Translations under genes and position numbers: made by a program
IMG/VR virus record: IMGVR_UViG_3300045988_068671
Span: 20,518 to 84,517 of that record
Source of the DNA: a virus
Length of the DNA: 64,000 nt
Direction: 5' to 3' (one strand)
The notes under the pieces: model-generated
What the model saw: the letters and a program-made list of their open reading frames with translations, nothing else
The model's database searches: none
Told to the model about the DNA's origin: nothing
Part shown: positions 1 through 18,638 of the stretch, piece by piece
Position numbering within the stretch: position 1 is the stretch's first letter
Layout of the letters: each line of letters starts with the position of its first letter

Positions 1-487
1 ACATTTCGTATAAAATGTCGTGAGTTATAGAAGGATAGAATTTTTTTATATCCATTTTCAAGCAATACTTTGTTTCTTCTGGATGTTTCTATAACACCTT
101 AAACAAATCATACTCTACTTTATGAATACCTCTATTTCGTATAGAGGAATATGTTTGGTCTATAAATATACTAGTCCAAATAGGCTCCATAATATTCATT
201 ATAGCATGGTGAGTTATTCTATCTGGATAGTATGGAAGTCTAAAGATTAATCTTTCTTTAGGTTCGTATATTATAAAGGTACTATATTCAGAGGTTTGAT
301 AAATCAAATCCCTTAACTTATCGGATAATTCCTTATTTTCTTTTAATCTATTCTTATCATGCTGCTTGATTCCACATCTAATAGACTTATTTCTTCTAGC
401 TTTATCGTCAGCTAGTTCGATGTTATCTTCAGCGTATACTTTCTCGTGCAAATATCCTACACGTTTCAATTTTTTTATATATTTCAT
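1..487 (-). CDS. DGR reverse transcriptase, N-terminal part (C-terminus runs off the window start); frame continues through the in-frame TAG at 89-91
   Basis: RT motifs PYYPDRITHHAIMNIMEPIW (domain 1/2) and, after the TAG, LKMDIKKFYPSITHDIL (domain 3); adjacent TR/VR pair. Confidence 0.75.
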
Positions 488-612
488 CGGAAGCGTTCGA
501 GAATTAACCTACTAACACCCTTCATTCAACACTACGTTATCTTTTGCCTAGAGGCAAGGATATTACTTAGCAAACTAAAAAAAATAATAAAATGTTTCTA
601 AATATATAATAA

Positions 613-710
613 CTCGACATTGGAATTGGCATTGCTGACGTCATTGTTAGAATTGAAATAGCTGAGACCTGCATTGCTGCCATTATTCGCGTTGCTGCCT
701 ACTAGCAGTA
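613..710 (-). repeat. DGR template repeat (TR), non-coding, rich in AAY (Asn) codons
   Basis: 98 bp homologous to 814-911 and 29272-29365; it carries A where both copies differ. Confidence 0.8.
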
Positions 711-786: not shown

Positions 787-2604
787 TTAAGATACTCTAT
801 TCAGAGTCCTGAACCCGACATCGGAATGGGCACCGCCGACGTCATCGTAAGAATGGAAAGAGCCGAGACCCGCATTGCCGCCACTACCCGCGCCGCCGCC
901 CACCAGCAGCGTGCGAAGCGCTGTGCTGCTTGCGTTGCAGTAATGGTAATCGCAAATATAAGTAGTAGCACTTCCTCCAACAGCGGATGGAATTATTTCA
1001 GCGGTTTCACCTAAGTCAAATGCCTTAATATAACCATCAGATGCTACTTCGTATCCTGCAACGGTTTTCTCTCCAACTACGTCGGTAAATTCCGATACGT
1101 TAGTAGTTGTATAGACAGTGCTAATCTCATTAGCAGCTGCCCTCACTATAACTACTCCGTCCAGGTTAGTCCAAATGTCTCCAAACGGATTATCGAACCC
1201 TCTCCAGCGAGGTACCTTAAATGTATGAGTTGCTACTGTACTTGTGCCATCTTGAGCTGTACATTCTGGAATAACTAAATCTTTTACTCCAGTGAAGTTA
1301 CCAAATTCATTGCAGTAACCACAAGGCGTAAGTGGATATGTTGCATTATATCCTGACCAACTTGTAGCTGCGTTAGCCCAATCTGTAACTCCAGGTCCTA
1401 AACCTCCTTGATGATATCCATCCGCAGTTAACTCTGCATTATATGCAGCCTAAGAATTAAAATTAGCATATTCAATGACATAATTCCAGTAGAATATCCA
1501 TTTGTAATATTCATAGCATAGCAATTCTGAACCAGCATTTGTTGCATATGTTCTCATAGTAGCTCTAGAAATATTAGTTCTAGGCTTTCCTAAATCACTT
1601 CTGAATATATCCTTAGTTTCTAATTCTGTAGTTAGATAATCATCGTAGTTAGCTCTATTTCCTCCACCTCTAAATGCAGTAGTAGTATTAACTACTGATA
1701 CAGCTTTTGGAGTTGCGGAGACTGTGGTATCAACTGTACTTCTGTATGCATCTATTAATAGTTCAGGAATTTCTACCCATGAATCATCAATTTTGACAGT
1801 AGAAGTTCTAACCCATCTTTTGTTTCCATCGCTGCCAGATTTTCCATAAAATTTAGGAGTATTAACTCTTACTGTTCCATCAGTTCCATCTAAGACAGAT
1901 GGAGTTTCTCCGTCTTCTTTATAAGACCAGTCATCTGGAAACAGATAGTAATTTACTACATCATTGTTTGCTACACAACCTCTATACGCTGATTGAATAG
2001 GAAGAGATTTATGCAGCAAAGGATTACCTATTCTAGTAAGTTCCGGAGATGCTACTGTAACATCCCATTCTACTCCATAGGAATATAAATCCATATTACT
2101 ATTTAGCTCAGTAATCTACTTATCAAGCTTTTGTTGTGCCTTCTACAATTCTTCCCAAGCCTCATTTAGCGCTGTAAATTGCTCTTCTAGCTTAGAACTT
2201 GAATCTGCCCATTCAGCAGTACCATCTGCTGAGAAAACTAGCATCTATCCAGATGCTCCTCCAGATGGAATATGTTTATTTCCAGAAGTAGTTGGATGTA
2301 CATAATTATTAGCATTATTAGCTATAGTACTTAACTTTTCCTTCTCAGTTTCAGTATAATTGGCTTCAGAAAGTCCCTTTCCTAACTCCTTATCTACTTT
2401 GCCTTCAAGCTCACCCTTAGTAGCTAATTCACTAATATCCTAATGCTCAGTTAAATATCCACTATCATTCTGTAACTAAGAAGTTTTAGTTGGAATTGCA
2501 TTAGCCTTGGCATATGTCGTATCTATAACATTTCCAGCACCATCGTAAGTAGCTTTTAAATCGTATGTGGTTTCCTCAACCTTTATAGATTTGATTGCTG
2601 CCAT
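787..2604 (-). CDS. DGR target protein 1: tail-fibre/receptor-binding-like, coiled-coil N-terminus, Gly-rich C-terminal VR; contains in-frame TAG (e.g. 1450-1452)
   Basis: ORF pieces 787-1146 and 1450-2094 share a frame and join across TAG; TAA at 787; ATG at 2602-2604. Confidence 0.65.
814..911 (-). repeat. DGR variable repeat 1 (VR1) at the C-terminus of the target gene
   Basis: about 22 differences from the TR, all at TR adenines; locally GC-rich. Confidence 0.8.
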
Positions 2605-2605
2605 A

Positions 2606-2818
2606 TCATTGTATTATTAAAGTTTCATCAACTACATCGTGATCTATTCCCTCTATGGAAGCAGTTAGGTCCTCAACAGCCTTCTACAATTCTGCTTTAG
2701 TAGCATAGTTCTTGAGAACTTCCTAGTCTACTCCAGAGCCTCCTCCTATACTTCCTCCAACAACTTTTACTGGTTTGGCAGAACTCTTAAACTGTCCTTC
2801 AATATAAATTGTTCCCAT
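2606..2818 (-). CDS. small hypothetical protein (about 70 aa) with one in-frame TAG
   Basis: ATG 2816-2818, TGA 2606-2608, hand translation. Confidence 0.35.
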
Positions 2819-2823
2819 ATTGT

Positions 2824-4689
2824 TTAAAATATTAATTGTTCATTTTCTCCATCTACCTCTACACTAGAACCTGGCTATAAAGCGTCTATCTTTTTCTACA
2901 ATTCGGCTACGGCCTAGCTAATTAGTTCTTCTACCTCAGCTTTGGTGTAGTATCTCTCTATAAGATATTCGCTCCTAACATATCCAGTATCTTGTAAATC
3001 TTTTTCTCCATAGGTGCAATAATAAGTATCTTCTTCAGTCTTACTATTCTCAACTAGGTCATCATAATCAGCTTGTGGTAAGCATACAAGTTTTGGTACT
3101 TCTTCAGTAATAGCAACTTGCTTGCCTCCAGCAAATAGCCTGTTATCTTCTGTGGTAAGTTTAACAGAACTCTCAATAACTTGCTCAGTTCCTGTTTCCT
3201 CAGAAGGTTCTCCAGTTGTTCCCTATTGTACTTCTTTTTCTCCAATTTTCTAAATAGTAATATCAGAAGTTTCTACTGATGTAGATTTCAAAAGCTCAGT
3301 GCTAAATTCTTTAGCAGCAGCAGCCTAATCATCCTGATATTTTTTCTAGGTAACAAATATGAAATCATCATCTCCGGTTTCAGGAGAGTCTCCCCTTAAA
3401 CTTTCTTTTGTTACGTAATCTTCGGCTATCTAATCTGATAAATCAGATAATGACTATTGAGTAGCATAAGTAGACTGAGCATTTTCCTTAGTAAGAAATT
3501 TGTCATCAACCTGCTAAATAGTATAATAAGCCTTAATATCTTCTGTAGTAACGTAGTTTCCAAGTTTTTGCAAACCTTGAACTATTTCATCAATCTACTT
3601 CTTGGAGTAATAATTTGTAGCAACCCAGGACTGATATTGATTGGTAGTATGATAATTCTAATCCAAATATTCCTTAGTAATATAAACCTTTGCATCATTT
3701 GTGACGTCATATACATAGTAATATGTATCAGGCTCTACCGTCCCTTCCTCTACTAACTTTAGATACTCTTCTTCAGTTAATGTTACTAAGTTCGGAATAT
3801 CCGATTCAGTAGCAATCTAATCTTCACCTATAAATAATCCTTCAGACCTAACGTCTACTACTAACTAGCTCTCTCCCTCTACTACAGGAGATTTTATCTA
3901 TCCAACAGTGATGCTTTCTAAGGAACCATCTCCATCTACCTTTAAAGTCTTATCTAGCTCATCTTGAATAGCCTATTGGTCTTCGTCATACTATTTCTTT
4001 GTAACAAAGACAAAATCATCTCCTTCCATTCCTTCTCCTCTAAGACTTTCTTTGGTAACAAATATGTCATCAGTTTCTTCCTTAGTATAATGGTTAGATA
4101 AGGCTTTAGATAACAAGGACTCTGGGTCCTCTAAATCTAGATCAGTTTTAGGGGCATAATTCTCAGTTAACTCTTCAAGGGTAGCATACTTGGAAAGGTT
4201 AGAGATTGTCTAGTCTAAATCCGTTCTAATCTGTACGACAGTAGTATTTAGAGCTTTCTATTTCAACTATTCCTCTATCTTTTTACCCCATTCTGCTGAT
4301 AAGTAAAACTAATCATCATCTAGGCTGTCTTCATATATATAATAATATGTTTCTGCATGAAGATATGTTTTATCTTCGTCTATAGGTTTAAAATCTTCTG
4401 TGGTATTTTTAGACCATTCCTTATATTCAGCCTCTGTACAGGTGATTATCTAAATAGATTCATAAGAAGCTTTCCAACCTTCTTTGTATTTAATCTTAGA
4501 CTTATCTACTAGCATATAAATATTTCCGTTATCTATATTTGAAACGGTCATGCCTTGATAAGCATATTTCTCCGGAATAGAATATAATTCGTCTAAATTA
4601 TCGACTACTGTTCTATTATCAAGAGGTTTAGGAGTTTCTACGGTTAAAGCAACACCTAATGTAGCATCACCTGTATATTTAAATGCCAT
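2824..4689 (-). CDS. tail-fibre-like repeat protein (about 621 aa) with many in-frame TAG
   Basis: repeated motifs (EEYLKLVEEGTVEPDTYYYVYD / EEVPKLVCLPQADYDDLVE...TYYC); ORF piece 4450-4689 ends at TAG; length divisible by 3. Confidence 0.55.
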
Positions 4690-6278
4690 TATTGTGATAA
4701 AGTAAAGTTAATTTGATGAGGTAGTGCTGAAGAGTAGGTATCCTTCTTAGTCCATACTTTATATGGGAATCCATTTATTTGTTCAGTAGAAGCTTCCCAA
4801 CCATTCAGATCGACATTCAAATATCCCAATCCTCCATCTACTGTGAAGGAATTTAGCTGAGTATTACTTCCTGGTAGTTTTATAATAGCCCTACCGCTTA
4901 ACGAAAATGTAATAGTGCCAGAAGCCTAATTAAATGGAACTAAAGACTATTTTATTAGCCCATCAGTATTTCCGGAATACCAAGGATAAGTAGCTGTTAC
5001 TTGTGCAGTTGCTGATATTGAACCAGCTTCCACCCTCTTGTCTGTAACCTCTCCCTTGTTGTTAATAAGATATTCTCCAGCAGCATAATTTACGGTACCA
5101 GAATGCACATAAACACCGATAGAATCATATGTTTCAGATTCTACAGGAGAATCATTATAGGTAATAGTTTCTTCTCTACCAGTTTCCTCTCCAGCATCAT
5201 TTTTTATAAATGTTAAAGTAGGGGTAAGTAAAGCGGATCCTACCTCCACAATCTAAGAGGTGAAGCTATAATACAACTAAGGATAAACCAAATCTCTAAC
5301 AACAGTAGGAAATAATAGAGTATCTATAATCTCATTAAACGGCTTTCCTTTCAATTTTTCGACTGTAGTTCCTTGAATAACAGTAGAAGTAGTATCATCT
5401 GGAAGTTCAGTTTGATAAGTGGCTATAGTTTCTAAACTTGTCTATATATTTGTGATATTCTTAGTATTGGAATCTACTTTAGAATCAGTGTTCTTCTAAG
5501 CTTCCTATACCCCCTTAACTTCTTCCTTTACCTCTGTTAGAGATGGTTCCAAGTCTTTTACATATATTCCAGGTAAAACTACTGTGGAAGGCTCCCCTTC
5601 CTCCTCTACTGGAGGAATTTCCTACTTAATCAGATGTATTGCATTATCCTCCTACTAAGATAGAATTACTTCTAGAGTATTATCATCCTTTATTTCTATG
5701 GTTTTGGAGTTTTTTAGACTATTAGTTATCCAATTCTAGATGTTTTTGTCAACATCTATATTTTTGATAGACTCGTTAATATCCTCTATTGCCTCATTAA
5801 TCTAGGTTATTTTCTCAGAAAGATTGTTTATGCCAGTTCTGTTAGATTCAATTTCTTCTTCGAGTTCTTCCTTAAGTACAGTAATAGAAGTTCTGATATT
5901 ACTTATATCAACTTTTATTTCCTCTATTTCTTCTGTATTAGCTTCGTACTAACTTATAAAGAATAAAGCATAATCTAAGGCATCTTTTACAGTATTGATA
6001 TTCTCTGCAACATCACTAGTATAAGTCCATTTCTATTCTATGTACTATACTAGATCTTTCTAGGCTTCTATAGTTCCTTCTATATTTCCCCAAAGAAGAC
6101 TCTATTCATCAGCGATGCCTAGATTCTTTCTAACCTTAGCTCTTTCTAATTCAGTTCTATATTCTCCAAGATAATTATTTCTTAAGAGAGGTATAGGTTC
6201 ACTTTTTATTAAATGTCCTTTCTTTCCACAAGGCTTTATATCAGCATTGCTTACCGAAGTGTAAATAGGCTGTATCAT
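4689..6278 (-). CDS. structural protein (about 529 aa), coiled-coil N-terminus, TAG-recoded
   Basis: contains ORF piece 4947-5249; TAA overlaps the next ATG (TAATG). Confidence 0.5.
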
Positions 6279-6433
6279 TATGATTCAATAATTGCTATTT
6301 AATAAATTCGTGATTATCTAATTTTACGGGTAGGTTAATAAAACAAATTAGATTCAAAATATCCTAATAATCTGGTCTATATCCCTTTCTAACCCTTTTA
6401 AGGAAATCCTCATACCTTTTAATAGCCTTTCTT

Positions 6434-7162
6434 TTAAGAGCATCCACAACCTATACGTTTATGTTCATGGTGATTGTTACAGAATCCACCGCAAGTACGG
6501 AACATCGCTAACAATCTTTCAGCTTCCATGAATTGTTTAAAGCCTATTAAATAATCTATAATGTTAAGTGTCATCCAGATAAAATCTCTTGCAAATATAT
6601 CTGCATCATGTTCTCTAGTTAAACACTTATTTAATAAAGAGTCAAAGAGTTTCTTACAGTAGTTAATATAACACTATTGCAGATTTCCTGTAAAGAACAC
6701 ATCTACCTTACATTTTTTGATAGTAGTCCCTTCTATATTTCTTTCAAGGATTTCTTTTACAGTACATTCCTCTAGCTCTCCATCTACTTCTTTATATAGT
6801 TTCTCTCCATCAGTTATATAGATAGTTTCATAATACTCCTTGTATTCATCAGATGAATTTTCATACCATTTCATATTAGGAAGAATTATGTGGTCTACTA
6901 CATAATATCCATCTTCTTTCACCTTAAATGTACAAGAGTCTAAATCCTCTGTATGGTCATTGAGAAGTACGTCTATCAAAGTAGCATCTCCTATACTAAC
7001 TTTTATGATAGTATTTAGGGTAGCACTTTCACTATACTTATAAGAATCATAGGAAGTTACTACCTCTAAATCTTCATCAATATACTATCCATATTCCTTT
7101 GAAAAGTCTTCAATAGTTATTTCCCCGTTAATCTGGGTATGTATATCAATACTAAATTCCAT
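6434..7162 (-). CDS. hypothetical structural protein (about 242 aa), Cys/His-rich C-terminus, TAG-recoded
   Basis: contains ORF piece 6674-6979, which ends at TAG; the true stop is TAA at 6434. Confidence 0.45.
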
Positions 7163-7172
7163 ATTATAATAA

Positions 7173-7907
7173 TTAAGACTCAGTAGTAGGCCATTGACCA
7201 TATTGAGCAGGAGTAGAAAATGGTTTCCACTTACCTTCTTGTCGTATACGTCTAGACATAAAAACTGAACTAAATGATAAACTAATATCTTGAGGATAGT
7301 CTGTCCATGTATATGACTAACCTTCAGGGGTCGGTGGTAGACTATTTAACTTACCAGCTGGTTTTCCATTCCAATAATAATTATAGTCATACGCTTTAGT
7401 TGGAGTAACAGTCGTTGTTTCATGTCCTTCTGAATCTACATATAGAGGATTTCCCTCCTCATCTGTTTTCTACTTATACTCAATAACTGGAGTTATTCCC
7501 TCAGTTCTAGTGTATATATTCTAGATAATAGTAGAAACATCGCTTGCTACAATCTCATAAATAGTAGTTCCCTGAGATTCGTCAGCCCCCTAGAAAGTAA
7601 ATTTAGTTCTTTTCCAGATATATGGATTCTCTTCAGTTGGAAGTTCAAAAGTATCAGTCCACTATTTAGTAGATAATTTTATCTCAGATTCTTCAGCAGT
7701 GTCAGCAGGTAAGTAATGAATCTTAATAATAATATTATTTACCGCTTCACTAGAACCAGAAAGGTCTGACACCTATTTAAATAGTTTCTTTAAATCTTCT
7801 TCCACATTTGATTTAGAACCAGAAGCATTACTAATAATTACTGAACCATCTGAAATAGGATAAATCTATTGCTAATCCTTATTATATACAATTGTTCCAG
7901 TTGCCAT
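7173..7907 (-). CDS. hypothetical structural protein (about 244 aa), TAG-recoded
   Basis: hand translation, ATG 7905-7907, TAA 7173-7175. Confidence 0.45.
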
Positions 7908-7908
7908 A

Positions 7909-10080
7909 TTAATGTATTTGTCTTATTTTGTCATTATATGGATTTCCATCATGAAGCTAAGCCAACTCTATTTCAGTTCTCTTTTCTTCTATATCCATTT
8001 GTCTATCTTTATATGTAGAATCAGATTGAGCTTTGAGCCAGTTAACCTTATATTCTAACTACATTTTCTGCTATTCTAATCCTAATCTCTACTCATCCAA
8101 ACTTTCTATCTTCTACTAAGCTTTCTATAGTTCTTGCTGTAACTGCTATGCCTATTGTGAAGTTTCTTCCAATTTTTCCTATAGCTACTATAGCTAATTG
8201 TTTTCTTCTTTACGAATCTATACTGCTTTCTTAACCTTGTATTTAAGGTCTGTAAGACTCTTAGCAGTTAGTGCTTCAAATATGATGTCAGGATCCATTT
8301 GCTGACTTTTAACAAACTCTGGAATAATAGCTTTAATAGTTTGTAAATCTTCCATTACTTCAGAGCTAGAAGTTATATGGATGTCATAATCAGTAACCGT
8401 AAAATACTCTGGAAGCGCTGTAAATATCTGCTAGTATTTATCTCCAAGTATAATAGTACCAGTCAATCCTTTCTTATATGTTATTTTAGCCTAGTTTAGA
8501 CTATCCAATAATATCTCACAAGTGATTAGGTCCATCTACTAGAAATAATGCTTGGTTACTATGTAAGAGTTAGTAACACCTTGCTTAATATTAGTTACAG
8601 CATCGTGAGTTTCTATTCCATTTAATCTTTCTCTAAATACTCCAGTTATAGATGATGTAGTTTGTTCTACTGATTGAATTGCTAATTCAATAGCCTATAC
8701 AGCCTAAGCTTTTAAGGTATCATCAAATCCATTGTATATCTAGTTAGGTGCTTGCGCTCCATCATTTCTTCCCTCCTAAGTGGAATCAATCCACATGATA
8801 CCACCCTTCTTGTATGCTAACCATTTCTACACTCTTTCTGGCCATTTTACGCCTAGGTTAGTAGGAAGCAATGACATATCCATGATTACTCCAGCAGTAC
8901 CGCTGTTAGCTATCAGGTTGTCCCTATAATAATTTAACAAGTCATATCTATCCTGTAGATGTGCACACTTTAATATCAGAGAGTACGGTTGTTGGGAACG
9001 ATTTAAGAAATATACCCCATTCACAGACAAAGAGCAGAAATTAGGATTATCTTTCGACCTCATAACAGTCTTGTCTAGACCTCTCAGAATATATATTTCT
9101 TCTCCAATTCTAATGGTATTGTATCTCTACATTACAAAATCGTCATCAGTTTCTATCCACTCTACATCATAAACAGGAATTAACTAAAATCTATGAGCAC
9201 TATATTCATTATCTGGATATCCAGGAATAGTTTCATGATTCTAATCTTCGTTTACTATAGTACAAGTGTCACCATAAACTCTTCTATAAACTGCAGCTGA
9301 ATCATCAGCTCTCCATTCATCTTTTAGTCTTTTCAAATCTTCTCTAGAGATTTCTTTTCCGTATTTAGCTAATATCTAGCTTTTACTCATCCATTTTCTA
9401 ACCACAACTCTATACGAATTTCTAACATATGGAGATTCTGGATTCCTATCTACGAAAGTATTTAAAGGATTCAGAACTTCTATTTCTATGTTAGTTCCAG
9501 AAGATGATGATTTTACTCTGAAAAATGTATAGCCAGTAATTAATAAATCTGTAAGTAACTATCGGAGTTTAGTTATTAAATCGGTTTCTCTAGACTGCAT
9601 GATATAATGAATAATATTCTATGCAGCTATCTCATATTGAGAAATAAAAGACTAATCAATGTCTTGAATAATTTTATCTAACTAAGTCTTCACGGCTTTA
9701 TCTGTAATATCTTTTCCGTCGATAAATTTCAGAATAGAATTACTTAAATGGTCTCTAAGAAATTTAACTATTCCTTTAGTTATTTCTAACTATTTTTCTC
9801 TGGTGATATTACTAATGGTATCTGAATCCTTACAAGAAATCTTCGGAAGGATAGGGGTTCCTAGATATTCCCCTACTAGAGCATCTACGTGCTTTTTTAG
9901 TAATGGTGTAAATTCTACAGAAGTAGGACTACCTATTCCAAAGTTTTCTTCCAGGTAACGAAACTATTCTGGGTCTCTCTTTCCGTTATAGTAATTATAG
10001 GCTTTCTATAATTCGTACTTATCATATACAAGCTCCGCAATAGCCTCGTTCGTCTTGTCTATCAGTTCTTTTTCTTTCAT
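7909..10080 (-). CDS. large virion protein, possibly portal (about 723 aa), TAG-recoded
   Basis: continuous frame with about 20 TAG; contains ORF piece 8827-9063; sits immediately downstream of the terminase. Confidence 0.45.
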
Positions 10081-10300
10081 AACATAAATTATGCTGTTCT
10101 GGAGGAAGTTTAGTTGCATTATAGTATTTAACTCTTTGTAACTTCCTACTTCTTAATTCTTCCTTTATAAATGGGAGAAATTCTTCATCAGGTAAATCAG
10201 CTATAATGACTAAAGGCATCTCTGACCTATCAAAGTTAAACGATACCTTATAACCAACTGGATCTAGGTTCTGAATTTCAAGCCCACCTACGTATTCCAT
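10022..10300 (-). CDS. small hypothetical protein overlapping the TerL 3' end
   Basis: ORF-track frame 10022-10483 trimmed to the internal Met. Confidence 0.25.
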   Translation of the reverse strand: MEYVGGLEIQNLDPVGYKVSFNFDRSEMPLVIIADLPDEEFLPFIKEELRSRKLQRVKYYNATKLPPEQHNLCYERKRTDRQDERGYCGACI

Positions 10301-12638
10301 TTTGTACAAGTCTCTCATATAACCTAGGATCACTTGTTTCAATTCTGTATGGGTCATCGTATTCATTTTTTTGTATGTTAGTTTCAAAAGTCTTAGAAGT
10401 TGGTATAACCCCAAATCTTTTGATTCCTCTCTCGTCGTAATAATAACCATAATCTTGGAATTGTTCAACTTCTTTTTCAACAAGCACTGGCTATCTTCCT
10501 GACAATTCCTAGTCTGCCAATTCTGTCATTCCTACAGCGGCTACAATATCGAATTTACCTTTATTCTCATCATTATATCCAGTAAATTGGTCTAACATTT
10601 CTTCAAACCATATAGTATGACAGAAATCCTCAATAAAGGCTGCTGTCAAATCAGTATGTTGTTCTATAATAGTTTTGGTAGCGGGTGTTCCGTACTATTT
10701 AGTAGTTCCATTCTTGACGTCTGTTAGAGTAGCTCTAGGTCTTTTCATAAAGTAGTTTAAACAACCCTTTTCTCTAGCCCAGGTAATCATACCTACACGG
10801 GTAGCTTCTATGTTTATTCTACAATTATAGTATCTAGCTAAACACATAGCTATTTTATAGGCTTCTCTAATGTCATTAGGTCTGTCTTTATACATAGCAA
10901 CATACTACGGTTCGTTTAGACCAAATGCTCTTCTTTTTATAGTTATACAGAAATCAGAAGGATCTCTTGTTTCTTTTGAAGTTTGACTAGCTCCTATATC
11001 AATACCGTCTATTCCTGCAACATATAAATCATGCATTTCTTTATACGCTGGAGATTCAAATTCTTCTCCCCTTTCCTCAGCTTCCTGTCTAAGTTTATCC
11101 ATCTATTCTTTATACAAATCAGACCATACAGGATGTTCAAGTATCTTTACTTTTCCGTTAATATTAGGAATCCATTTAAAACCATCTATATTATCCTAGG
11201 TGTGTTTATTGTTTTTATAGAAGTAGTCTATGTATCCAGATTCTGGTCTTGGTCCTATTTTCTTAAGTCTTATATTAGCTAATTGGTCCGCAATAAGAAT
11301 CTTGTTAAACTTGTTGACACCTTCAAGATTAAATGCTTCTTCTGCATTCCAACATCGTTCTGCACACTTCTTTAGATAGTCATCTGGAACCGCTAATAAG
11401 TTATCACGCTCTTCCTATAGATACTTCTTATATTCTACTGTATTACATACACCCCTATGGTCCATGTATTCTGAATTTAGGGACTAGACAAAATACGGAA
11501 TGAAGAATCCACTTTCAATAGTAGTTCCATCCTATGTATAATTATGTCTAAATGGAAGAACTTTGTAAGCTTTTGGATTGTAATATATCTTCTTAAGACC
11601 TGCTAATGGAGCACCCATATCACCACCAGTACCTCCAAATAACATTGTTCCACGAGGTTTACCCTGAACTTCACAAAGCTCTTGCCCCTGCACTACAGCA
11701 GTATCTAGTCCAGGCCAAGACCCTGCTTCATCATATATTAATAAGTCAACACGGTCTCCACGAATATTAGATGCCTTAGCTCCATTTATTCCAACTACTT
11801 CTGATTTAAATCCAACATCCTCAAACTGTCCGTTTACCTTAATCTGTTTACCAGACTTTTTTCTTAAGTCTTGGTCAATCAAACGTAGTTTGAAGAATCC
11901 CCCTCCTGTACAAGTATTCAAGAATGTTAAAGCATTATCAAACTTACTAAAAGTACCTTTAAGGAAGGTATCATTAAAACAAGTAATCATTACTCTGCTT
12001 CTTCTGATTACTGAATACATTCTTGCAGATAAGGATGCATTTATTTCAGAGAATCCAATAGAACGAGCTTTCATTAGAGCTGCGTGTTTATGCAGGACTC
12101 TAGCCATCTACAGATAATGAAAGAACATATAATGAGATGCGAAAAATATAGGAAAGTCACTACTTGTTCCTTCTCCAGATGCTTTGTTATCATCAATAAT
12201 AGGAAGCTAGTAGAAGTTTAGGAAGAAATAGTTATCTCCAGTAATTGTATAACCATTAACAGTCATTCCATATTTACATCTTCTATACTATTCCTTCCAA
12301 AACTCATTATATCTCTTACTATCTTTTAGATATGGACAATACTTTCCAGTTTTTCTATATACTTCTCTAGTCTCAGTAAACCAGTCTGGGTCGAAGTCAA
12401 GACCATGTGTCTCATCTATTGGTCTATATCCAGTTATTTCATAAGATAAAGTAGGGTCAAATACTTCTATCTTATCTCCTCTTTTTACATCCCAATAATC
12501 AGCATTTTTGTCCCTTTCTTCTCTTATCTTCTATACTAGTTCTCTAGCTTCTTTGGCATCCTCTTTTTGTTCTTTCTCTCTTACCTAATCTACTATATTC
12601 TAGATTTCTTCAGGTAATATTTTTTTCTTTCTAGGCAT
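10278..12638 (-). CDS. terL: terminase large subunit (about 786 aa) with about 12 in-frame TAG
   Basis: Walker-B-like GDRVDLLIYDEAGSWPG, C-terminal nuclease-like region; ORF pieces 11532-12107, 10905-11102, 10695-10895 and 10278-10487 are co-frame. Confidence 0.7.
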
Positions 12639-12640
12639 AA

Positions 12641-13207
12641 TTAAAAGTCTCCTGGGTCAAAGCCGTCTGTAGCTCCACCTCTTACAGTAGATTGTTCTGT
12701 AAGCTCTTTCTTAACCTGCTCTTCTAGTGTTACTAATTCTTCATGAACTTTATGAAGAGTAGCCATTTCTTTCATTACCTTTTCAGCTTGAAAGACGGGT
12801 TTGCCATTATTATCACGTTCATTTAAATCTACTATAGTATCAAAATAATCAATAAACTAGTCAGCTGCTCTTTTAGCTGCTTCTAGAAGTTTTATTGATT
12901 TGTTAGAATCCTACAATGCTCGGTATTTTCTACAGGCTTCCCTGAATAACGGGTCATTAAATTCGGATTCAGATAGTCCAGAGTCACTAATAGCTTCATC
13001 ATGTCTTTCATGTTCTGAATATTGGCTATAAGGACTCTTCCAATCAATAGCTAGATAAATGTAAGACAATTCTCTAGTTACTCGTTCCTTGTCAACAGAT
13101 TTATCTCTCTGTATCAAAGCCTTAAACTCTTTAACTAGAAGAAGCTCTGGTTCATTTATCTCTAACTATTTAGTTAAAGTGTTATAATTAAATACATTCA
13201 TACTCAT
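12641..13207 (-). CDS. possible terminase small subunit (188 aa), TAG-recoded
   Basis: position immediately upstream of terL; TAA overlaps the terL ATG; contains piece 12911-13117. Confidence 0.4.
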
Positions 13208-13237
13208 CAATCATTAACATTAACATCTTTAATCTTT

Positions 13238-14455
13238 TTATTTCATTTTAGAACCGCATTTACTTACTTTCATTTTAGAACCACAAGCATCCTTCTTAGC
13301 ATACTTTGTTCTATCTGGAACCCATTTTCCATTTTTGAAATTTCCCTTGTGTCCCCTGTTCGCCATAACCTCCTGGTCATTATATTTATTAATTGATACG
13401 GAATCTCTGGACGCTTCATCCTTTGCAGATTTCATATCCTTTTTATACTAAGCTCTTCCAGCTTTGAACTTGTCAACTTCATTAGCTTTCTTAGTAACCT
13501 TAGTTCCTTTCTATGCTTTTTGGCAAGCTTTGCAGATTCTTCCTCCCTGTTTAAAATAAACAAGTTCCTCTCCTTCTGGGCATACTCCTTTTAATTTTTT
13601 ATAGTATTCTAGTTTAGCTCCAAGTCTAGCCATAACTCCGCCTTGCATCTTCTACATAAATTCTTGATACTTGGCTTTGATTCCATCTTCTCCTAATTGC
13701 TGAGCATATTGTTCTAAATCCTACTCAGATTGTAATTGTATTCCTTGTGCTGCGGCATCCTGTATTAAGTATGCCATAAATGCTTTTTGTAATTCTTCCT
13801 AATTAGCCATTGCTCCTCCTTGTTGATATTTAACTCGTTGCTATCTAGCAGTTGCCTTTGGTATATGTTCCCAACTTCTCTAATTTTTGAGCTATTCTGG
13901 AGTTAGTTTCTGCCCATACATATTAGTTGTAGGCGGCTTTATCCATTGTTCTTGGATAGTTCCAGTATGCTCTCCAGTTTCCTAGTCTACTTGATTTTGG
14001 TACGTAGTAGCTCTTTTTCCGTCTTGACTATATGTAACATAGGGATTATTCATTACTGGAGTTCCTACCTCTACTGTTGCTTTCTTTCCATTAGCTAACT
14101 ATGTTCCATACACTCCTTTCCCCCATTTGAATTGAGTTAGTCCTCTCTTTCTGGCTTCTCTAAATGCTGCACCAAACCCCTAGACTCCTCTTAAGTCGTC
14201 GTTTTGAATTTGTTGCTAAGGTGCATTTATTTTCTTAGGAATAGTAGGAGTAGACGGCTTTAATCCTAATATAGGTTTTTGTTGTATAGCTGGCACAGCA
14301 CTTCTTTTCTTCTACTATGCAGTATTTCTAATAGAGTTCGGATTACTTTGCCAAGTCTAATGCAACTGTTGTAAAGTTCTTCCGTCTAACTCTGCGTCTC
14401 CATATATAGTCTTGATATGCTACATTAACTCTGGATCAAATTGTATTTTCGCCAT
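13238..14455 (-). CDS. Gln/Lys-rich hypothetical protein (about 405 aa), TAG-recoded
   Basis: C-terminal piece 13238-13435; continuous frame upstream with many TAG. Confidence 0.45.
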
Positions 14456-14665
14456 TATTCTTCTACTTTAATTAAGTCTTTTGTATTAAATACTGCTTCC
14501 TGCATTAATCCAGAATCAGTAAACCATCTACATCTTAGTCCTCGTAATCCTTGGTTATCTTTAAATAAAGCTGCTTCTCTTCTTAGAACAAGCATAACTG
14601 GAGAGTGCATTACTTTACACTACCGTAAAGTAACACAATCCCCAGGCTTAAAATAAACTTTTTCA

Positions 14666-15283
14666 TCAATTGTTTCCATGCTTCAATTCGTCTCTTCTTT
14701 CAGTTAGTTTCTCATTAACTACAGCCATGATTCTATTCTCATTAACTACTACAAATCCTAGTTTATAGAATGGAACCATACATTCGCTAGCTATTGTATA
14801 AAATACAATATCTCCAGGCTTCAAGAACTCACACTTGTGTCCTACTTCTATCACAGTTCCTACTTTAATAAATTGTTGTTCTTCTTCAATTTCTCCAGTC
14901 TCATTAGATTTATAAGTAGGAGTAAATCCACCTAAATCAGTAATAAGACCACTTTTAGTAGTTTTTATTTTTTGGAATGGGTTTCGTTCAAAAGGTTTAA
15001 TTAATGCATACCCATACATCGGCATAATTTCAAGTCCATTCATATCGTTAGATAATGACTTAGCGTAATCCTCTAGTGCCTGATTATGTTTGGAGAATTT
15101 ATCCTCTAACTCATCTACTGCGGTATTAAACTTCTCTTGTTTTTCTCTTAATAATGTTTGGTCTGCAGCTTCTCCATTTAAAATAAAATGTTCTCCCGTA
15201 CCTTCCATTCCAGTTAATGATAGTGCTAGTTTTTCGTTACTGTTTAATTCTGTTCTTAAAGTTTCCATAATCCATTTTACCAT
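14666..15283 (-). CDS. hypothetical protein (205 aa)
   Basis: complete ORF with TGA stop and no internal TAG. Confidence 0.55.
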   Translation of the reverse strand: MVKWIMETLRTELNSNEKLALSLTGMEGTGEHFILNGEAADQTLLREKQEKFNTAVDELEDKFSKHNQALEDYAKSLSNDMNGLEIMPMYGYALIKPFERNPFQKIKTTKSGLITDLGGFTPTYKSNETGEIEEEQQFIKVGTVIEVGHKCEFLKPGDIVFYTIASECMVPFYKLGFVVVNENRIMAVVNEKLTERRDELKHGNN

Positions 15284-15666
15284 TTACATAAATCACAATG
15301 TTCATCTTCAATTCTTGTTTTATTCTCTAATATACAACCACATTCATCGCACACTTCCCCAACAGATGTTTGTAATTTATGGGAACAAGCGTCACAAATT
15401 TTTAATCTTTTGGTTGCCAAATCTTGATTTATTCCGAATATATTGAAATATATACTTTTCAATATTGTCAAAGGTTTAGTAAATATTGCTTTAATCCACT
15501 TCCATATCATATCTTTTTCCTCCTTTGTTTCCCTATTTATATTTTGGACAGTAAGTATATAATGCTTATCTAGTTTATATAATATAGGAGTTCCATAAAT
15601 TACCATTTCCCTGCTGGACAATGTTTCTTTTCGTTTGGAATCTTCTTCTCTAGTAAACATCCACAT
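15277..15666 (-). CDS. Cys-rich zinc-finger-like protein
   Basis: C-terminal CxxC...HCDLCKW, paralogous to 15600-15815. Confidence 0.45.
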   Translation of the reverse strand: MWMFTREEDSKRKETLSSREMVIYGTPILYKLDKHYILTVQNINRETKEEKDMIWKWIKAIFTKPLTILKSIYFNIFGINQDLATKRLKICDACSHKLQTSVGEVCDECGCILENKTRIEDEHCDLCKW

Positions 15667-15815
15667 CCCTTTATATACCCTTCTTTAGGGCTTATACTTA
15701 TATCATTATTCTTTGGATTTAGATACAAATGCCCATTACATAATCCATTATCTTGGTCACATATTGGACAGCGTCTACATATCTCAAATCTTTCTTCTAT
15801 TTCCTCTAGTGTCAT
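15600..15815 (-). CDS. Cys-rich zinc-finger-like protein
   Basis: CRRCPICDQ...HCPAGKW. Confidence 0.4.
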   Translation of the reverse strand: MTLEEIEERFEICRRCPICDQDNGLCNGHLYLNPKNNDISISPKEGYIKGCGCLLEKKIPNEKKHCPAGKW

Positions 15816-15817
15816 AA

Positions 15818-16732
15818 TTAATATTCAATACGTTGACGTTTTCTTTTATTTTCTGCCAATATAGATTCCTTCTTATAGAAGGCTAGCATTTTTATAACCT
15901 CATCTTTTAGATATGGCAAATGATATACTGTCATATTATCATTATGGTCGAAATGTACCAAAACCAAATCCTCTATTTCAAACTCTGGATTTTTCTTTTG
16001 AATCATCCAAGCATAAGTACTTAATTGTAAAGTATAGTGCCAGTAATTAACATCATCTAAATTATTTAGAGGATATTTCATCTTAACAGAAGTTTTAGTT
16101 TTAGAATTGAAGAAACTCTTAGTTTCTATTTTCTTATTGGTCTTCCAGTCTCCTATAATTATCTTATTTCCTCTTTTAACTAATAAGTCAATCTGTCCTG
16201 CTATTCTTAGCTTTCCATCATCCGATACTCTAGATATTAAATACTCAGGATATACACCATTCTCTAAGTCTAATTCATTGTGGTCTTTTATACACTCGAA
16301 CTTGCCACCTATTTGATATTTACTAAGGTCTATGTTCTGTTTCTTTTTATAGAAAGAGTTTTCCAAATCTGCATGGATTTTAGTTCCCCTCTCGCATGAG
16401 TTTCTATTCTCTAAATCCCAAGCATCTAAGATAGCTTGTTGCTCTTTATTAAACTCGTCTTCTGTAATGTTATGAAGTTCAAGTAGAACTTTATCAAATT
16501 TCTTAGTGTTTAACAAAGACTTTTTTTCTATAGCCCAATCTTCTTTAGGTAAGAGTTTCTCTAGTGCTTTATATGCTGACCAGAACTCCTTATCAAATGG
16601 TTGGGTGAAAGAATGAATTAAAGTCGTTACAGATATAAACTTCTGTTCTGGCTTTGTAACATCATAATAAATATGAGCTTCTTCCTCAAAAGCTATGTTC
16701 CCATTTTGTTTTGTAATTTTACTTTTGTCCAT
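15818..16732 (-). CDS. PD-(D/E)xK family nuclease-like protein (304 aa)
   Basis: motif GQIDLLV...IIIGDWKT. Confidence 0.5.
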   Translation of the reverse strand: MDKSKITKQNGNIAFEEEAHIYYDVTKPEQKFISVTTLIHSFTQPFDKEFWSAYKALEKLLPKEDWAIEKKSLLNTKKFDKVLLELHNITEDEFNKEQQAILDAWDLENRNSCERGTKIHADLENSFYKKKQNIDLSKYQIGGKFECIKDHNELDLENGVYPEYLISRVSDDGKLRIAGQIDLLVKRGNKIIIGDWKTNKKIETKSFFNSKTKTSVKMKYPLNNLDDVNYWHYTLQLSTYAWMIQKKNPEFEIEDLVLVHFDHNDNMTVYHLPYLKDEVIKMLAFYKKESILAENKRKRQRIEY

Positions 16733-16846
16733 TAGTCATAATTCATTTAATCATTTATCACATTTATCTATATTTATTTGATACTTTTCAAGTATATTAA
16801 TATTCTTTGTAAGATACAAATCAATAAATAATACATTATATTAAAA

Positions 16847-17188
16847 ATGTCTAATATGACAAAAATGGTAACATTTGGATGTCCAATTTTTAAAAATGGG
16901 TCAGGCATCCATATTAAAGAGAAAAACAAAGGCAAATTTACTGCCTCTGCTAAGGCTTCAGGATAGTCTGTACAGGAACATGCTAAATCTGTACTAAACA
17001 ATCCTAATGCTACTCCTCTTCAGAAGAAGCGTGCTAACTTTGCTAGAAACGCGGCTAAATGGAAACACGAAGATGGAGCTAAGATACATAAACCAAGTGG
17101 ACATAGATCTATTCTAGATAATGGATGGATTCCTACTACTAGATTAAAGAAAGGAAATTATGGATTAATTAAAACAAGAAAGCAATGA
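16847..17188 (+). CDS. small basic protein with one in-frame TAG (16964-16966)
   Basis: hand translation; ends TGA. Confidence 0.35.
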
Positions 17189-17459
17189 ACGCTGTAGTTA
17201 AATTAATTAAAGAATTTATACTTAAGATATATCTTTATTTACTATTTATATTTAATAAGTAATATGGACTATAATAGAGCAACTCTTTATGCGGCAACAG
17301 GTCGCACTCTCTTACTTCCTGGATGGAGAGGATATTTTTATTGGGATTATTCTAAAAAGGAATTGAATTTCAGAAACGGAGATTATCATTTAGATAATAA
17401 ATAGCTTAGAGAAAAAGGAGTTATGGAGAGAACTGATTGGTACTATATTATATAACAAA

Positions 17460-17500
17460 ATAGGCGAGCCTAGAGATTAGGTTCGCCTATTATTATTTAA
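17460..17500. terminator. hairpin AGGCGA...TCGCCT plus T/A run, possibly a bidirectional terminator
   Basis: seen in sequence. Confidence 0.35.
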
Positions 17501-17694
17501 CATTATACTTTGTATCATAAGTACAAGTGATTCTATTTATGCCATCCTCCCACCAAGGTTTATCTGATGGCTATCTAATACCACTTGGGATGGTTATTGT
17601 AGGAGTAGAAGTTTCTACTATAGCATCTACTATTTTAAATAATGTATCCAAGTCAAATTCTGGAAATTCATTATGTAAGTTTGTCAATGTCTTT

Positions 17695-17931
17695 TTAAAG
17701 TCTATCATATCCCTCAAATGTATTATCAATTATTGCTTTTTCTAGTGTAGTGTCTTTATATAGTCCATTTTTAATTAGATTTCTAACTGAATTGTCAACT
17801 ATATTCCATATATCAATCAGTAATGATTTATTCTCCGGAACACTTCTAAGTGCACTTTCTAAATATCCGGCTTTTATCATATTTATTAGTTGACCATTAA
17901 TAAAGACTTCAAATTTAAATTCTTTATCCAT
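17695..17931 (-). CDS. hypothetical protein (78 aa)
   Basis: ORF track. Confidence 0.45.
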   Translation of the reverse strand: MDKEFKFEVFINGQLINMIKAGYLESALRSVPENKSLLIDIWNIVDNSVRNLIKNGLYKDTTLEKAIIDNTFEGYDRL

Positions 17932-18099
17932 ATATTTTAGTATATTACACTTAGTCTATTTAATTCATCTAGGTAATCTAGAAACCATTGTTCATTTTGT
18001 TTTCCTTCTTCTGCAACAATCTCAATTAAAGATTCTGCTGCTAGGAGTATAGTTTCAGATAACTCTTTTAAATTTGGCTTAGTTAGTTCATTGTATTTA

Positions 18100-18414
18100 T
18101 CAGTCAAGTTTAACATAATCCATCCAGTCTTTTATATATGATTTACATTCCTCTAAATCTGGATAGATACTTGCTATAGTGCAACCTGTTTTTGGATTCC
18201 TAAAATGATGAAGTTTTGCTTCCTCATTTTTCTCCTCTTCTATATTTCTATTTAATGTTCTATTCCAGTAGTTGTATTTCTCATCTAGCATTTCCTTATC
18301 ACATTCTTCCAATATTTTCATATTGGGATTACTCATTATTTTGTCATACTTTCTTTTTAAATTAGAAACTTTGACAACATCATTACCATTCAATACGACT
18401 GCACACTGTTCCAT
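18100..18414 (-). CDS. hypothetical protein (104 aa)
   Basis: ORF track. Confidence 0.45.
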   Translation of the reverse strand: MEQCAVVLNGNDVVKVSNLKRKYDKIMSNPNMKILEECDKEMLDEKYNYWNRTLNRNIEEEKNEEAKLHHFRNPKTGCTIASIYPDLEECKSYIKDWMDYVKLD

Positions 18415-18638
18415 TTCACTACTTTATAAGTACATATCTTACCTATCTGCTTTCCTTGAATACTTATTTGTGGAAGAAAGTAGCAGACTTGATTCTCAAA
18501 TTCTTGAGGTACAAATATGTAATCAAATCTACATCCAACTACCTTATCGCAAACTTTATTCCAATCATCTCCCTCTTCAATAATAAGGGTCTTAGCTCCT
18601 GTTGGAGTTACAGCATAATTCTCATTTAACTTTATCAT
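18390..18638 (-). CDS. hypothetical protein (82 aa); the track ORF's N-terminal extension is tRNA sequence
   Basis: trimmed to Met at 18636-18638. Confidence 0.4.
   Translation of the reverse strand: MIKLNENYAVTPTGAKTLIIEEGDDWNKVCDKVVGCRFDYIFVPQEFENQVCYFLPQISIQGKQIGKICTYKVVKWNSVQSY

Follow-up and report, generated by a model that had tools for sequence, protein, structure and literature searches.

Alternatively coded gut phages were reportedly described by Ivanova et al. in 2014. Within the crAss-like phages, the definition of the Zeta group goes back to Yutin et al. 2021 (PMC7886860). According to a 2025 description (PMC12386605), these phages have genomes of 176-189 kb and encode 23-27 tRNAs and a CTA suppressor; amber suppression and a DGR are further features, and their RT genes contain amber codons. 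Its Table 1 includes ctHMy13, ctoVY1, cthgQ11, and 3717_85572 as amber-recoded (code 15) examples. Borges et al. (10.1101/2021.08.26.457843) proposed that a code switch regulates late and lysis genes, a timing model that accommodates recoded homing endonucleases in early regions, and reported recoded prophages inside standard-code hosts as well as a bias of recoding toward lysis genes.

Here we analyzed a 64,000-nucleotide stretch of viral DNA (the window). Over 20.5 kb it matches a 188,976-bp JGI contig at 100% identity, assemblies made independently from many samples agree at 98-100%, and the exact DUF1810 protein encoded next to one of the recoded genes is present in 473 blocks of the collection. 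The phage to which it belongs is a common Zeta-type crAss-like gut phage of ~189 kb. Features in common with the Zeta phages are the likely genome size (~189 kb here; 188,977 bp in cthgQ11), a GC content of about 35%, about 27 tRNAs and a tRNA(CUA), structural genes and a DGR RT gene that contain amber codons, a DGR acting on a tail-fibre protein, and scattered homing-type endonuclease genes; comparison with the available parts of the published descriptions yielded no real difference (PMC12386605). The findings, including the early/late asymmetry that the original prediction had likened to that of stop-codon-recoded gut phages, fit what has been published on Zeta crAss-like phages (Yutin 2021; Borges 2021; Peters 2022; Zeta paper 2025). 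The recoding is confirmed and is already published biology for exactly this phage group.

Results

Late genes are interrupted by TAG only

When TAG is read as sense, the minus strand between 787 and 14679 resolves into 12 contiguous genes comprising 4588 codons, which from 787 upward measure 605, 70, 621, 529, 75, 255, 244, 736, 786, 188, 405, and 74 aa and contain 6, 2, 22, 17, 3, 2, 8, 34, 15, 3, 16, and 1 in-frame TAG, respectively. These 129 TAG stand against no in-frame TAA or TGA, and the joined frames terminate as had been predicted, with nine TAA, three TGA, and no TAG. Off-frame, stop triplets on the same strand are about equally frequent (TAA 400, TGA 286, TAG 276 in 9176 positions), which excludes chance as the cause of the TAG-only in-frame use. 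The share of the arm lying within ORFs of at least 100 aa rises from 19% under code 11 to 95% under code 15, compared with 19% when TGA and 26% when TAA is taken as sense, and TAG-sense translation yields full-length, homolog-matching proteins. Between 33 and 68% of Gln codons in late genes are written TAG, the first UAG being reached at codons 6-80. All five CTA triplets quoted in the original prediction (89-91, 1450-1452, 4450-4452, 6674-6676, and 8827-8829) are present and in frame in minus-strand genes; the standard-code pieces span 0 to 221 codons, not 60-214 aa as stated there.

The arm holds packaging, portal, and tail genes, all on the minus strand. The tail protein gene targeted by the DGR (787-2604, 605 aa, 6 TAG, stop TAA) matches the phrog_5302 tail protein at E=3e-84. 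A 621-aa structural-arm gene (2824-4689, stop TAA) contains 22 TAG (55% of its Gln codons), consistent with the more than 20 claimed, and its homolog in the relative L001 is 87% identical over 384 aligned residues, with TAG kept or swapped with CAR. It is accompanied by a tail-like gene (4689-6278, 529 aa, 17 TAG; phrog_788 tail protein, E=1e-5), a 255-aa gene of uncertain start (6434-7201, 2 TAG; L001 homolog 95% identical), and a 244-aa gene (7173-7907, 8 TAG). The portal protein gene (7909-10080, about 723-736 aa) carries 34 TAG, 59% of its Gln codons, and matches the phrog_6547 portal (E=9e-48) and phrog_156 (E=4e-14). The large terminase gene terL (10278-12638, 786 aa, stop TGA) contains 15 TAG rather than the approximately 12 first counted; its product, crAss-like by tblastn, matches phrog_6681 (E=1e-61) over residues 90-713, a span including 12 TAG, and 786-aa homologs are 73-91% identical, with TAG, CAA, and CAG interchanging at the codon level. 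The block continues with a 188-aa gene (12641-13207, 3 TAG; phrog_16390, E=9e-10) and a Gln-rich gene (13238-14455, 405 aa, 16 TAG) that is predicted as a 405-aa gene in relatives as well. Its first gene (14455-14679, 74 aa, 1 TAG), in which all changes relative to related phages are synonymous, shares 14 nt with the end of the TAG-free gene 14666-15283.

At 1-562 (minus strand), the window edge truncates a gene for a DGR-type reverse transcriptase, of which the N-terminal part is included. Its interruption by TAG, proposed earlier, is seen in this edge fragment as four in-frame TAG, and full-length RT relatives of 334-340 aa contain 4-9 each. The fragment scores 26.5 bits against Pfam RVT_1 (E=6e-6), below the cut-off of 29.6 because the gene is truncated. 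The template repeat (TR; 611-708, minus strand) is a 98-nt direct repeat of the variable repeat (VR; 812-909, minus strand), which lies within the tail-protein gene at its 3' end, and 21 of 21 mismatches between them fall at TR adenines on the coding strand.

TAG exchanges with glutamine codons

Window CAA/CAG codons are aligned to TAG in relatives in 22.3% of cases, compared with at most 2.6% for codons of any other amino acid, an approximately tenfold preference. Conversely, 45 of the 107 non-TAG codons found opposite window TAGs in relatives are CAA or CAG, and TAG positions are kept or swapped with CAR at protein identities of 33-98%. In homolog alignments, suggested earlier as a check, TAG positions are internal and fall mostly in Gln columns, not in gaps or at termini. 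The RT is particularly informative: the TAG in 'FKVL[TAG]KHPEE' is aligned to Q in six RT variants ('AKDLKYVL[Q]KYPEET'), and the invariant Gln of the GNYLSQ motif is TAG in 31 of 74 unique variants of this phage group but Q in all 11 TAG-free RTs, a behavior repeated in a second invariant Gln column. Likewise, at column Q29 of the 396-aa protein described below, at least 90% of homologs have Q, and the codon here is TAG. In the standard-code TerL of MT835470 (~42% identity), Q occupies only 2 of 14 covered TAG columns, most of the others being E, K, R, or D, a pattern that is compatible with Gln without being diagnostic of it. Metaproteomics of related phages found Q (PMC9523058).

Two tRNA(CUA) genes

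The strongest mechanistic evidence for recoding, absent from the original prediction, comes from two tRNA genes with anticodon CUA, both called by ARAGORN. Suppressor tRNA A (18655-18727, minus strand; Rfam tRNA, 66.3 bits) is tRNA-Gln-like; it lies upstream of the late genes and is encoded on their strand. Its closest relative among the window tRNAs is the phage tRNA-Gln(UUG) (33540-33612, plus strand), with which it has U1-A72, G2-C71, A73, and the D-arm in common. The gene is conserved in L002 and L017 with compensatory stem changes, and relatives that keep it have a TerL ~74% identical or a homolog of the 396-aa protein 62% identical. Upstream of it, a 133-aa ORF (18865-19266, minus strand) retains all of its three TAG at 90-91% nucleotide identity, with 18-19 synonymous versus 11-15 nonsynonymous changes. 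In E. coli, supE (glnV/glnX) is an amber suppressor of similar make, a CUA-anticodon tRNA-Gln that places Gln at UAG in competition with RF1. Suppressor tRNA A has the same combination of a tRNA-Gln body and anticodon CUA; whereas supE is a weak host mutation with partial read-through, the suppressor here is a phage gene. As essential late genes rely on it for about half of all their Gln codons, decoding must be efficient.

Suppressor tRNA B (21072-21142, plus strand; Rfam tRNA, 32.6 bits) is atypical, with a D-loop devoid of GG. In the L146 and L150 variants, its acceptor, anticodon, and T stems show compensatory changes, and a terminator-like hairpin follows downstream (21284-21305). Directly upstream lies a RAGATH-14 RNA (20849-21042, plus strand; Rfam RF03145, 183.3 bits, E about 1e-35), an adjacency found in 9 of 9 scanned IMG/VR relatives of the phage group. 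The accessible parts of the published Zeta-phage descriptions make no mention of a second tRNA(CUA) with a RAGATH-14 neighbor.

Recoding is distributed by gene

The plus strand holds 38 solid genes (at least 100 aa; 7949 codons, 223 CAA/CAG) without a single TAG, ending in 29 TAA and nine TGA, in agreement with the prediction that most plus-strand genes use these stops. On the minus strand, the genes at 14666-18414, which separate the recoded block from suppressor tRNA A, are likewise TAG-free and code-neutral; among their products are a GroES-like protein and a PD-(D/E)XK nuclease. One TAG occurs in a small doubtful ORF of this region (17493-17708). The plus strand has three recoded genes. 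A conserved 396-aa gene (22422-23612, 7 TAG) runs into the start of the DUF1810 gene (23605-24090), which is TAG-free. A PD-(D/E)XK homing-type endonuclease gene (26263-26724) inside the tRNA array has three TAG as its only Gln codons and matches Pfam PDDEXK_5 (E=2e-23) over profile positions 2-134 of 138, TAGs spanned. A GIY-YIG homing-type endonuclease gene (38924-39559, 6 TAG; Pfam GIY-YIG, E=6e-13) directly follows tRNA-Cys (38819-38904). The predicted early/late asymmetry is supported, but the division runs per gene and not by strand or arm. Alt-type proteins of phage T4 are ADP-ribosyltransferases packaged in the virion; the 396-aa product, whose TAG codons imply that it would be made late, may be likened by analogy only to a protein of ADP-ribosyltransferase fold.

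One plus-strand gene ends in TAG (44180-44872; TAG at 44852-44854), with a back-up TAA five codons on (44870-44872) that sits inside a tRNA-Glu gene. That TAG does terminate 44180-44854, as initially suspected, is supported by relatives (77-85% identity) that end '...EAYSLIA' at TAA or TGA one residue earlier. A candidate cell-wall hydrolase (glucosaminidase, 46374-46871) is free of TAG. Because TAG is almost completely avoided, as sense codon and as stop alike, plus-strand genes read correctly under either code; they are not written in a different one.

As in the phages of Borges et al. (10.1101/2021.08.26.457843), structural genes are recoded while many other genes are standard-code compatible, the suppressor tRNA lies in standard-code-compatible DNA, TAG is rare as a stop, and a recoded homing endonuclease gene is found inside an early region. 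Unlike in those phages, no RF2/aminoacyl-tRNA synthetase 'code change module' was seen in the 64 kb here, the window's one candidate wall hydrolase carries no recoding, and the TAG-rich block begins inside an apparent single operon.

Discussion

We consider it highly probable (roughly 93%) that this Zeta-type crAss-like phage of ~189 kb uses code 15 in selected genes, with UAG read as Gln via its own tRNA(CUA). Were the TAGs true stops, the late arm would consist of pseudogenes or of assembly or sequencing artefacts, its long frames being coincidental. Under code 11, ORFs of at least 100 aa indeed leave 81% of the arm uncovered, and JGI standard-code gene calls on the identical contig (L013) are short fragments only. 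Yet TAG alone interrupts the frames (129 vs 0 TAA/TGA) despite the similar off-frame frequency of all three triplets, independent assemblies agree across many samples, the exact DUF1810 neighbor recurs throughout the collection, TAG sites remain conserved or CAR-swapped in distant relatives, and the arm encodes the indispensable TerL and portal, so that this explanation is effectively refuted. A different residue at TAG (pyrrolysine, Glu, Lys, Tyr, Leu, or Trp) might be suspected from the 'tRNA-Pyl' label that ARAGORN gives both tRNA(CUA), from TAG columns that are mostly E, K, or D in distant standard-code TerLs or face K, E, or T in relatives, and from suppressor tRNA B, which does not resemble tRNA-Gln. 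The label, however, is mere convention for any CUA anticodon, and Pfam scans of window ORFs found no pyl genes. The preferential exchange with CAA/CAG, the two invariant RT Gln columns, including the GxxxSQ motif, written TAG in many variants, the acceptor and D-arm features common to suppressor tRNA A and the phage tRNA-Gln, and the Q obtained by metaproteomics of related phages (PMC9523058) make any residue other than Gln very improbable.

Alternatively, the host might supply the code, by native reading of UAG as Gln or by its own suppressor, with the phage tRNA(CUA) merely boosting it and no timed switch. Such a scenario agrees with the overlap between the first recoded gene and its TAG-free, probably co-transcribed neighbor, and with the finding that ~50 window ORFs compared with Pfam (64 of ~189 kb) include no release factor or tRNA synthetase gene, glutaminyl-tRNA synthetase among them. 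A host-read TAG would, however, spread over all phage genes, whereas it accounts for 33-68% of Gln codons in late genes and for none in the 38 plus-strand genes, and it terminates 44180-44854 where relatives use TAA or TGA. Moreover, Prevotella, Phocaeicola, and Lachnospira are standard-code bacteria. These are the predicted hosts of matching Zeta phages in Table 1 of the 2025 description (PMC12386605), and recoded prophages have been reported inside standard-code hosts (Borges, 10.1101/2021.08.26.457843). We therefore regard a host-supplied code as highly unlikely.

Under phage-encoded reassignment, UAG would be translated as Gln in the packaging, portal, and tail genes, the DGR RT, the two homing-type endonucleases, and the 396-aa gene. 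The decoder would be the amber suppressor tRNA(CUA) at 18655-18727, derived from tRNA-Gln, with the atypical tRNA(CUA) at 21072-21142 as a possible further contributor. The sequences themselves show the codon pattern, the Gln meaning of TAG, the two tRNAs and their conservation, and the near-complete lack of TAG in most other genes. Timing is taken over from the model published for phages of this kind, and early or late assignment is inferred from gene functions. At the start of infection, a standard-code host would translate TAG-free genes only, and on recoded mRNA host RF1 would release any ribosome at the first UAG. Charged by host GlnRS, the suppressor tRNA would accumulate and outcompete RF1, allowing read-through of late genes. 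A simple early/late switch fits poorly with the 3-TAG ORF upstream of suppressor tRNA A and with the start of the block, where 14455-14679 and the last TAG-free gene are, given their overlap, probably co-transcribed; the TAG-free glucosaminidase also fits it poorly, contrary to the lysis-gene bias of Borges et al. Genome-wide avoidance of TAG stops would limit harmful read-through of the phage's own early proteins, and the sole clear TAG stop has a TAA five codons on. Since late genes would be read through only after suppressor build-up, recoding would act as a translational gate atop transcriptional timing.

TAG is the only in-frame stop of the late-gene arm

Across its 64 kb the window has a GC content of 35.6% and a GC skew that changes sign near 20 kb, with minus-strand genes to the left and plus-strand genes to the right of this point. 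With TAG taken as a sense codon, the minus-strand region 787–14679 resolves into 12 contiguous genes, 4588 codons in total, which contain 129 in-frame TAG triplets and neither TAA nor TGA; nine of these genes terminate in TAA and three in TGA. Essential conserved genes are thereby interrupted in frame by one stop type alone and terminated by the other two. Off frame, the same strand carries 400 TAA, 286 TGA, and 276 TAG triplets at 9176 positions. As the three are about equally common there, the in-frame monopoly of TAG is no effect of base composition. Five CTA triplets named as examples in the original prediction all exist and lie in frame in minus-strand genes. Its count of about 12 TAG codons in the large terminase gene was too low, the actual number being 15, and the RT gene is TAG-interrupted as described, but only a truncated fragment of it is present, at 1–562.

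Under the standard code (table 11), 19% of the late arm is covered by open reading frames of 100 aa or more; with TAG read as glutamine (table 15) the figure is 95%, compared with 19% and 26% in control reassignments of TGA and TAA, respectively. The median ORF length of the arm rises from 136 to 330 aa with TAG as sense. In the plus-strand arm, coverage increases from 61% to 69% when TAG is read as sense, with controls at 66% and 72%; the gain in this arm is non-specific. Standard-code gene calls by JGI on an identical contig break up the terminase, portal, tail, and RT genes, and translation with table 15 is necessary for annotating these genes of the window.

The joined frames encode crAss-like phage proteins

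Reading TAG as sense yields long proteins that match homologs, as originally anticipated. The large terminase (TerL; 10278–12638, minus strand) matches phrog_6681 (E = 1e-61) over residues 90–713, where 12 of its TAG codons lie, and the portal (7909–10080, minus strand) and tail proteins (787–2604, minus strand) match phrog_6547 (E = 9e-48) and phrog_5302 (E = 3e-84). By tblastn, TerL is 42–46% identical to sequences on unclassified human-gut phage contigs and 26–29% identical to those of Suoliviridae and other Crassvirales. Together with the PHROG portal and TerL families, these similarities place the window among crAss-like phages, and its TerL is crAss-like as judged from sequence. Many TerL homologs in the protein database have a length of 786 aa, share 73–91% identity, and are located on contigs of 170–195 kb. 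The 20.5 kb segment 13605–34090 is 100% identical to JGI contig 3300029118 Ga0168844_100042 (188,976 bp), further assemblies of 183–207 kb are 98–99% identical, and IMG/VR holds dozens of relatives of 183–193 kb. The exact DUF1810 protein is present in 473 collection blocks. A megablast search of 7000–15000 against the INPHARED phage collection gave no match.

The length of the 188,976-bp relative and the 27 tRNA genes of the window agree with the 145–192 kb genomes and many tRNAs of the Crassvirales Zeta group. A probable placement in this group is based on a match to Table 1 of a 2025 paper on Zeta-type crAss-like phages (PMC12386605) in size, tRNA count, suppressor tRNA, DGR, and GC content; the crAss signature genes MCP, IHF, and giant RNAP lie outside the window. 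Entries 13–16 of that table resemble the window in size, GC content, ~27 tRNAs, a CTA suppressor, amber suppression, and a DGR, and they include cthgQ11, listed at 188,977 bp.

A complete DGR lies at the left edge of the window, where the RT fragment (1–562), the template repeat (TR, 611–708), and the variable repeat (VR, 812–909) at the C-terminus of the tail protein are all located on the minus strand. All 21 mismatches between TR and VR fall on coding-strand adenines of the TR, and full-length RT relatives contain the GxxxSQ motif. DGRs are already known in this phage group, and amber codons in RT genes have been reported for Zeta crAss-like phages (PMC12386605).

Evidence for a glutamine reading of UAG

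Within the clade, glutamine is the majority residue at 11 of the 15 TAG columns of TerL, a test that is partly circular because the homologs are themselves recoded and were translated with TAG as glutamine. It was replaced by codon-level comparisons and by RT homologs free of TAG. Eight late genes were compared with those of three relatives (L001–L003) at 33–98% protein identity. TAG in these relatives faces 22.3% of the CAA/CAG codons of the window, but at most 2.6% of the codons for any other amino acid. Conversely, CAA or CAG accounts for 45 of the 107 non-TAG codons that face a TAG of the window, followed by GAA with 11.

The RT comparison comprised 74 distinct full-length variants from IMG/VR, 11 of them without TAG. 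All 11 TAG-free RTs carry the invariant glutamine of GNYLSQ, the DGR hallmark motif, and 31 recoded variants with otherwise identical flanks have TAG in its place. A second invariant glutamine, in KPNY[Q]IF, shows the same TAG/Q behavior. The TAG of the window RT itself (FKVL[TAG]KHPEE) stands opposite glutamine in six variants (AKDLKYVL[Q]KYPEET). The proposed alignment of TAG positions to glutamine is thus borne out by codon exchange in the late genes and by two invariant RT columns. In late genes, TAG is the commonest glutamine codon (129, compared with 92 CAA and 33 CAG), making up 33–68% of glutamine codons per gene. For other crAss-like phages, metaproteomic support for code 15 was presented by Peters et al. 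2022 (PMC9523058). Taken together, codon comparisons strongly support a reading of UAG as glutamine in the recoded genes of this phage.

Distant TerL proteins at 26–42% identity, two of them standard-code and two stop-interrupted under table 11, place the TAG columns at internal, mostly polar, non-terminal positions; they are too divergent to identify the residue. Two of the four Suoliviridae reference TerLs have internal stops in their RefSeq CDS under table 11: six in NC_055892.1 cr109_1 and seven in NC_055898.1 cr115_1. These two genes are presumably recoded as well, which makes them unsafe as “standard-code” references.

Recoding is gene-specific rather than strand-specific

TAG is missing altogether from 38 plus-strand genes with a length of 100 aa or more (7949 codons, including 223 CAA/CAG), against 129 TAG codons in the late arm, and these 38 genes end in TAA (29) or TGA (nine). 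Their products include DUF1810, radical-SAM, SPFH, AAA, RNase H, OmpA-like, NAMPT, PRPP synthetase, and SF2 helicase proteins, and a 25-gene tRNA array is interspersed among them. The glucosaminidase gene (46374–46871) is likewise not recoded. Recoding is concentrated in structural genes, whose designation as late follows from gene function only. The strand asymmetry of the original prediction holds for these 38 genes but not as a strand rule, as exceptions occur on both strands: minus-strand genes at 14666–18414, between a suppressor tRNA gene and the recoded block, contain no TAG, and the recoded genes outside the structural set are the RT gene, two homing-type endonuclease genes, and a 396-aa ORF. 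Recoding is therefore gene-specific, not strand-specific.

Both endonuclease genes lie on the plus strand inside the tRNA array. A PDDEXK_5 gene (PD-(D/E)XK, PF11645; 26263–26724) has three TAG as its sole glutamine codons, and a GIY-YIG gene within 38819–39559 has six TAG. The latter directly follows an unusually long (86-nt) tRNA-Cys gene. Recoded homing endonucleases within early regions have previously been described by Borges et al. The conserved 396-aa ORF (22422–23612, plus strand) contains seven TAG, and its homologs at 37–62% identity contain 7–14; the DUF1810 gene that overlaps it downstream has zero TAG throughout the same comparison. At the border of the late arm, the first recoded gene (14455–14679) and the last TAG-free gene share 14 nt.

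A TAG that terminates

TAG terminators are almost absent, with one clear case. The gene at 44180–44854 had been proposed to end in TAG, and rightly so: relatives at 77–85% identity stop there too, one residue earlier, with TAA or TGA. Read-through of the TAG at 44852–44854 would add only five residues up to a TAA (to 44872), and this back-up stop falls within a tRNA-Glu gene starting at 44858. As TAG ends this gene and encodes glutamine elsewhere, one codon serves as both stop and sense in one genome.

Two suppressor tRNAs and an RNA cluster

ARAGORN identified 27 tRNA genes in the window, two of which have the anticodon CUA; both are phage-encoded, and both show compensatory stem changes in relatives. 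ARAGORN labels them “Pyl”, a mere naming convention for the CUA anticodon. Suppressor tRNA A (18655–18727, minus strand) folds into a canonical cloverleaf (Rfam, 66 bits). Its nearest counterpart among the tRNAs of the window is the phage tRNA-Gln(UUG), with which it shares U1-A72, G2-C71, A73, and an identical D-arm. In more distant relatives, homologous tRNA(CUA) genes are also positioned upstream of late genes; their acceptor, anticodon, and T stems show compensatory changes, and they retain the anticodon loop CUCUAAA. Suppressor tRNA B (21072–21142, plus strand) is atypical, with a D-loop lacking GG and an Rfam score of 32.6 bits. Its variant in two relatives (L146 and L150) carries compensatory changes in three stems, indicating that tRNA B is also under tRNA-like constraint; it was not found in a more distant relative (L017).

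The gene for tRNA B is part of a plus-strand cluster right of the strand switch. About 30 nt separate the tRNA from a RAGATH-14 RNA upstream (from 20849; 183 bits), and the tRNA is followed by a terminator-like hairpin (21284–21305), a RAGATH-1 hammerhead ribozyme (21313–21382), two small ORFs, a pistol ribozyme, and the recoded 396-aa ORF. A pistol ribozyme likewise precedes the 396-aa homolog in a divergent relative (L016). Adjacency of RAGATH-14 and tRNA B is kept in nine of nine scanned IMG/VR relatives of the phage group. An exact-pattern search of IMG/VR for RAGATH-14, which was too strict, gave 11 loci, of which 10 belong to this group; the sole foreign contig (98 kb) has a tRNA(CUA) 7.5 kb away. 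A full-text literature search on RAGATH-14 found no paper.

Discussion

The TAG pattern, the glutamine meaning, two conserved tRNA(CUA) genes, and the code-neutral remaining genes form the observed basis for a possible course of infection, modeled on Yutin 2021 and Borges 2021. In a host with the standard code, the TAG-free genes would be translated first, and recoded mRNAs would abort at their first UAG, at codons 6–80. The suppressor tRNA, presumably charged by the host GlnRS, would then accumulate and outcompete RF1, upon which the packaging, portal, tail, RT, endonuclease, and 396-aa proteins would be made. Neither a release factor nor GlnRS nor any other code-change protein was detected in Pfam and PHROG scans of plus-strand ORFs, and no gene for RF2 or GlnRS came to light within the 64 kb covered. 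TAG-free and recoded genes meet within an apparent operon, which suggests a gate that acts at translation instead of merely mirroring transcription. A sigma-70 promoter scan of 12500–23800 gave 49 sites compared with 46 expected from shuffles; Bacteroidota/crAss promoters lie outside the reach of that scan.

A tmRNA-like gene is located at 42592–43155 on the plus strand (Rfam RF00023, 68.8 bits, E about 1e-24). At 564 nt, it exceeds the 374 positions of the model and contains large insertions; an apparent reading frame for the tag, ...AEIAPVRMAA, is followed by UAA. ARAGORN did not detect it, and the Zeta crAss paper (PMC12386605) makes no mention of tmRNA. In a phage with a recoded stop codon, a phage-encoded tmRNA could be relevant to the rescue of ribosomes at unsuppressed UAG. 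In addition, two adjoining TAG-free plus-strand genes for NAD salvage (56729–59493) encode NAMPT (56729–58291) and a ribose-phosphate pyrophosphokinase (58684–59493). They possibly constitute a counter-defence, NAD-replenishing module, and the pair is noteworthy beside the 396-aa ORF, a candidate ADP-ribosyltransferase-fold protein.

The observation that TAG is recoded in this phage is correct but already known, since published work on Zeta phages and by Borges and Peters covers the same features. Small advances are a pairing, conserved in the phage group, between RAGATH-14 and a second tRNA(CUA), a recoding set gene by gene even for overlapping neighbors (the 396-aa ORF and DUF1810), and the documented dual stop/sense use of TAG within a single genome. 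A speculative and rather improbable extension is that the code switch does not depend on a single suppressor: the RAGATH-14/tRNA B unit might act as a regulated or processed timer or trigger, or as an additional decoder that has a charging identity or timing of its own, apart from the tRNA-Gln-like late-strand suppressor. If true, RAGATH-14 would gain a role in the control of genetic-code switching. Earlier publications cover the phenomenon with its late-gene bias, the suppressor tRNA, amber DGR RTs, and recoded homing endonucleases, and no new principle is put forward; the window offers a clean and strongly supported case in which a phage drives the reassignment of UAG to glutamine in selected genes, within one of the commonest phage lineages of the human gut.
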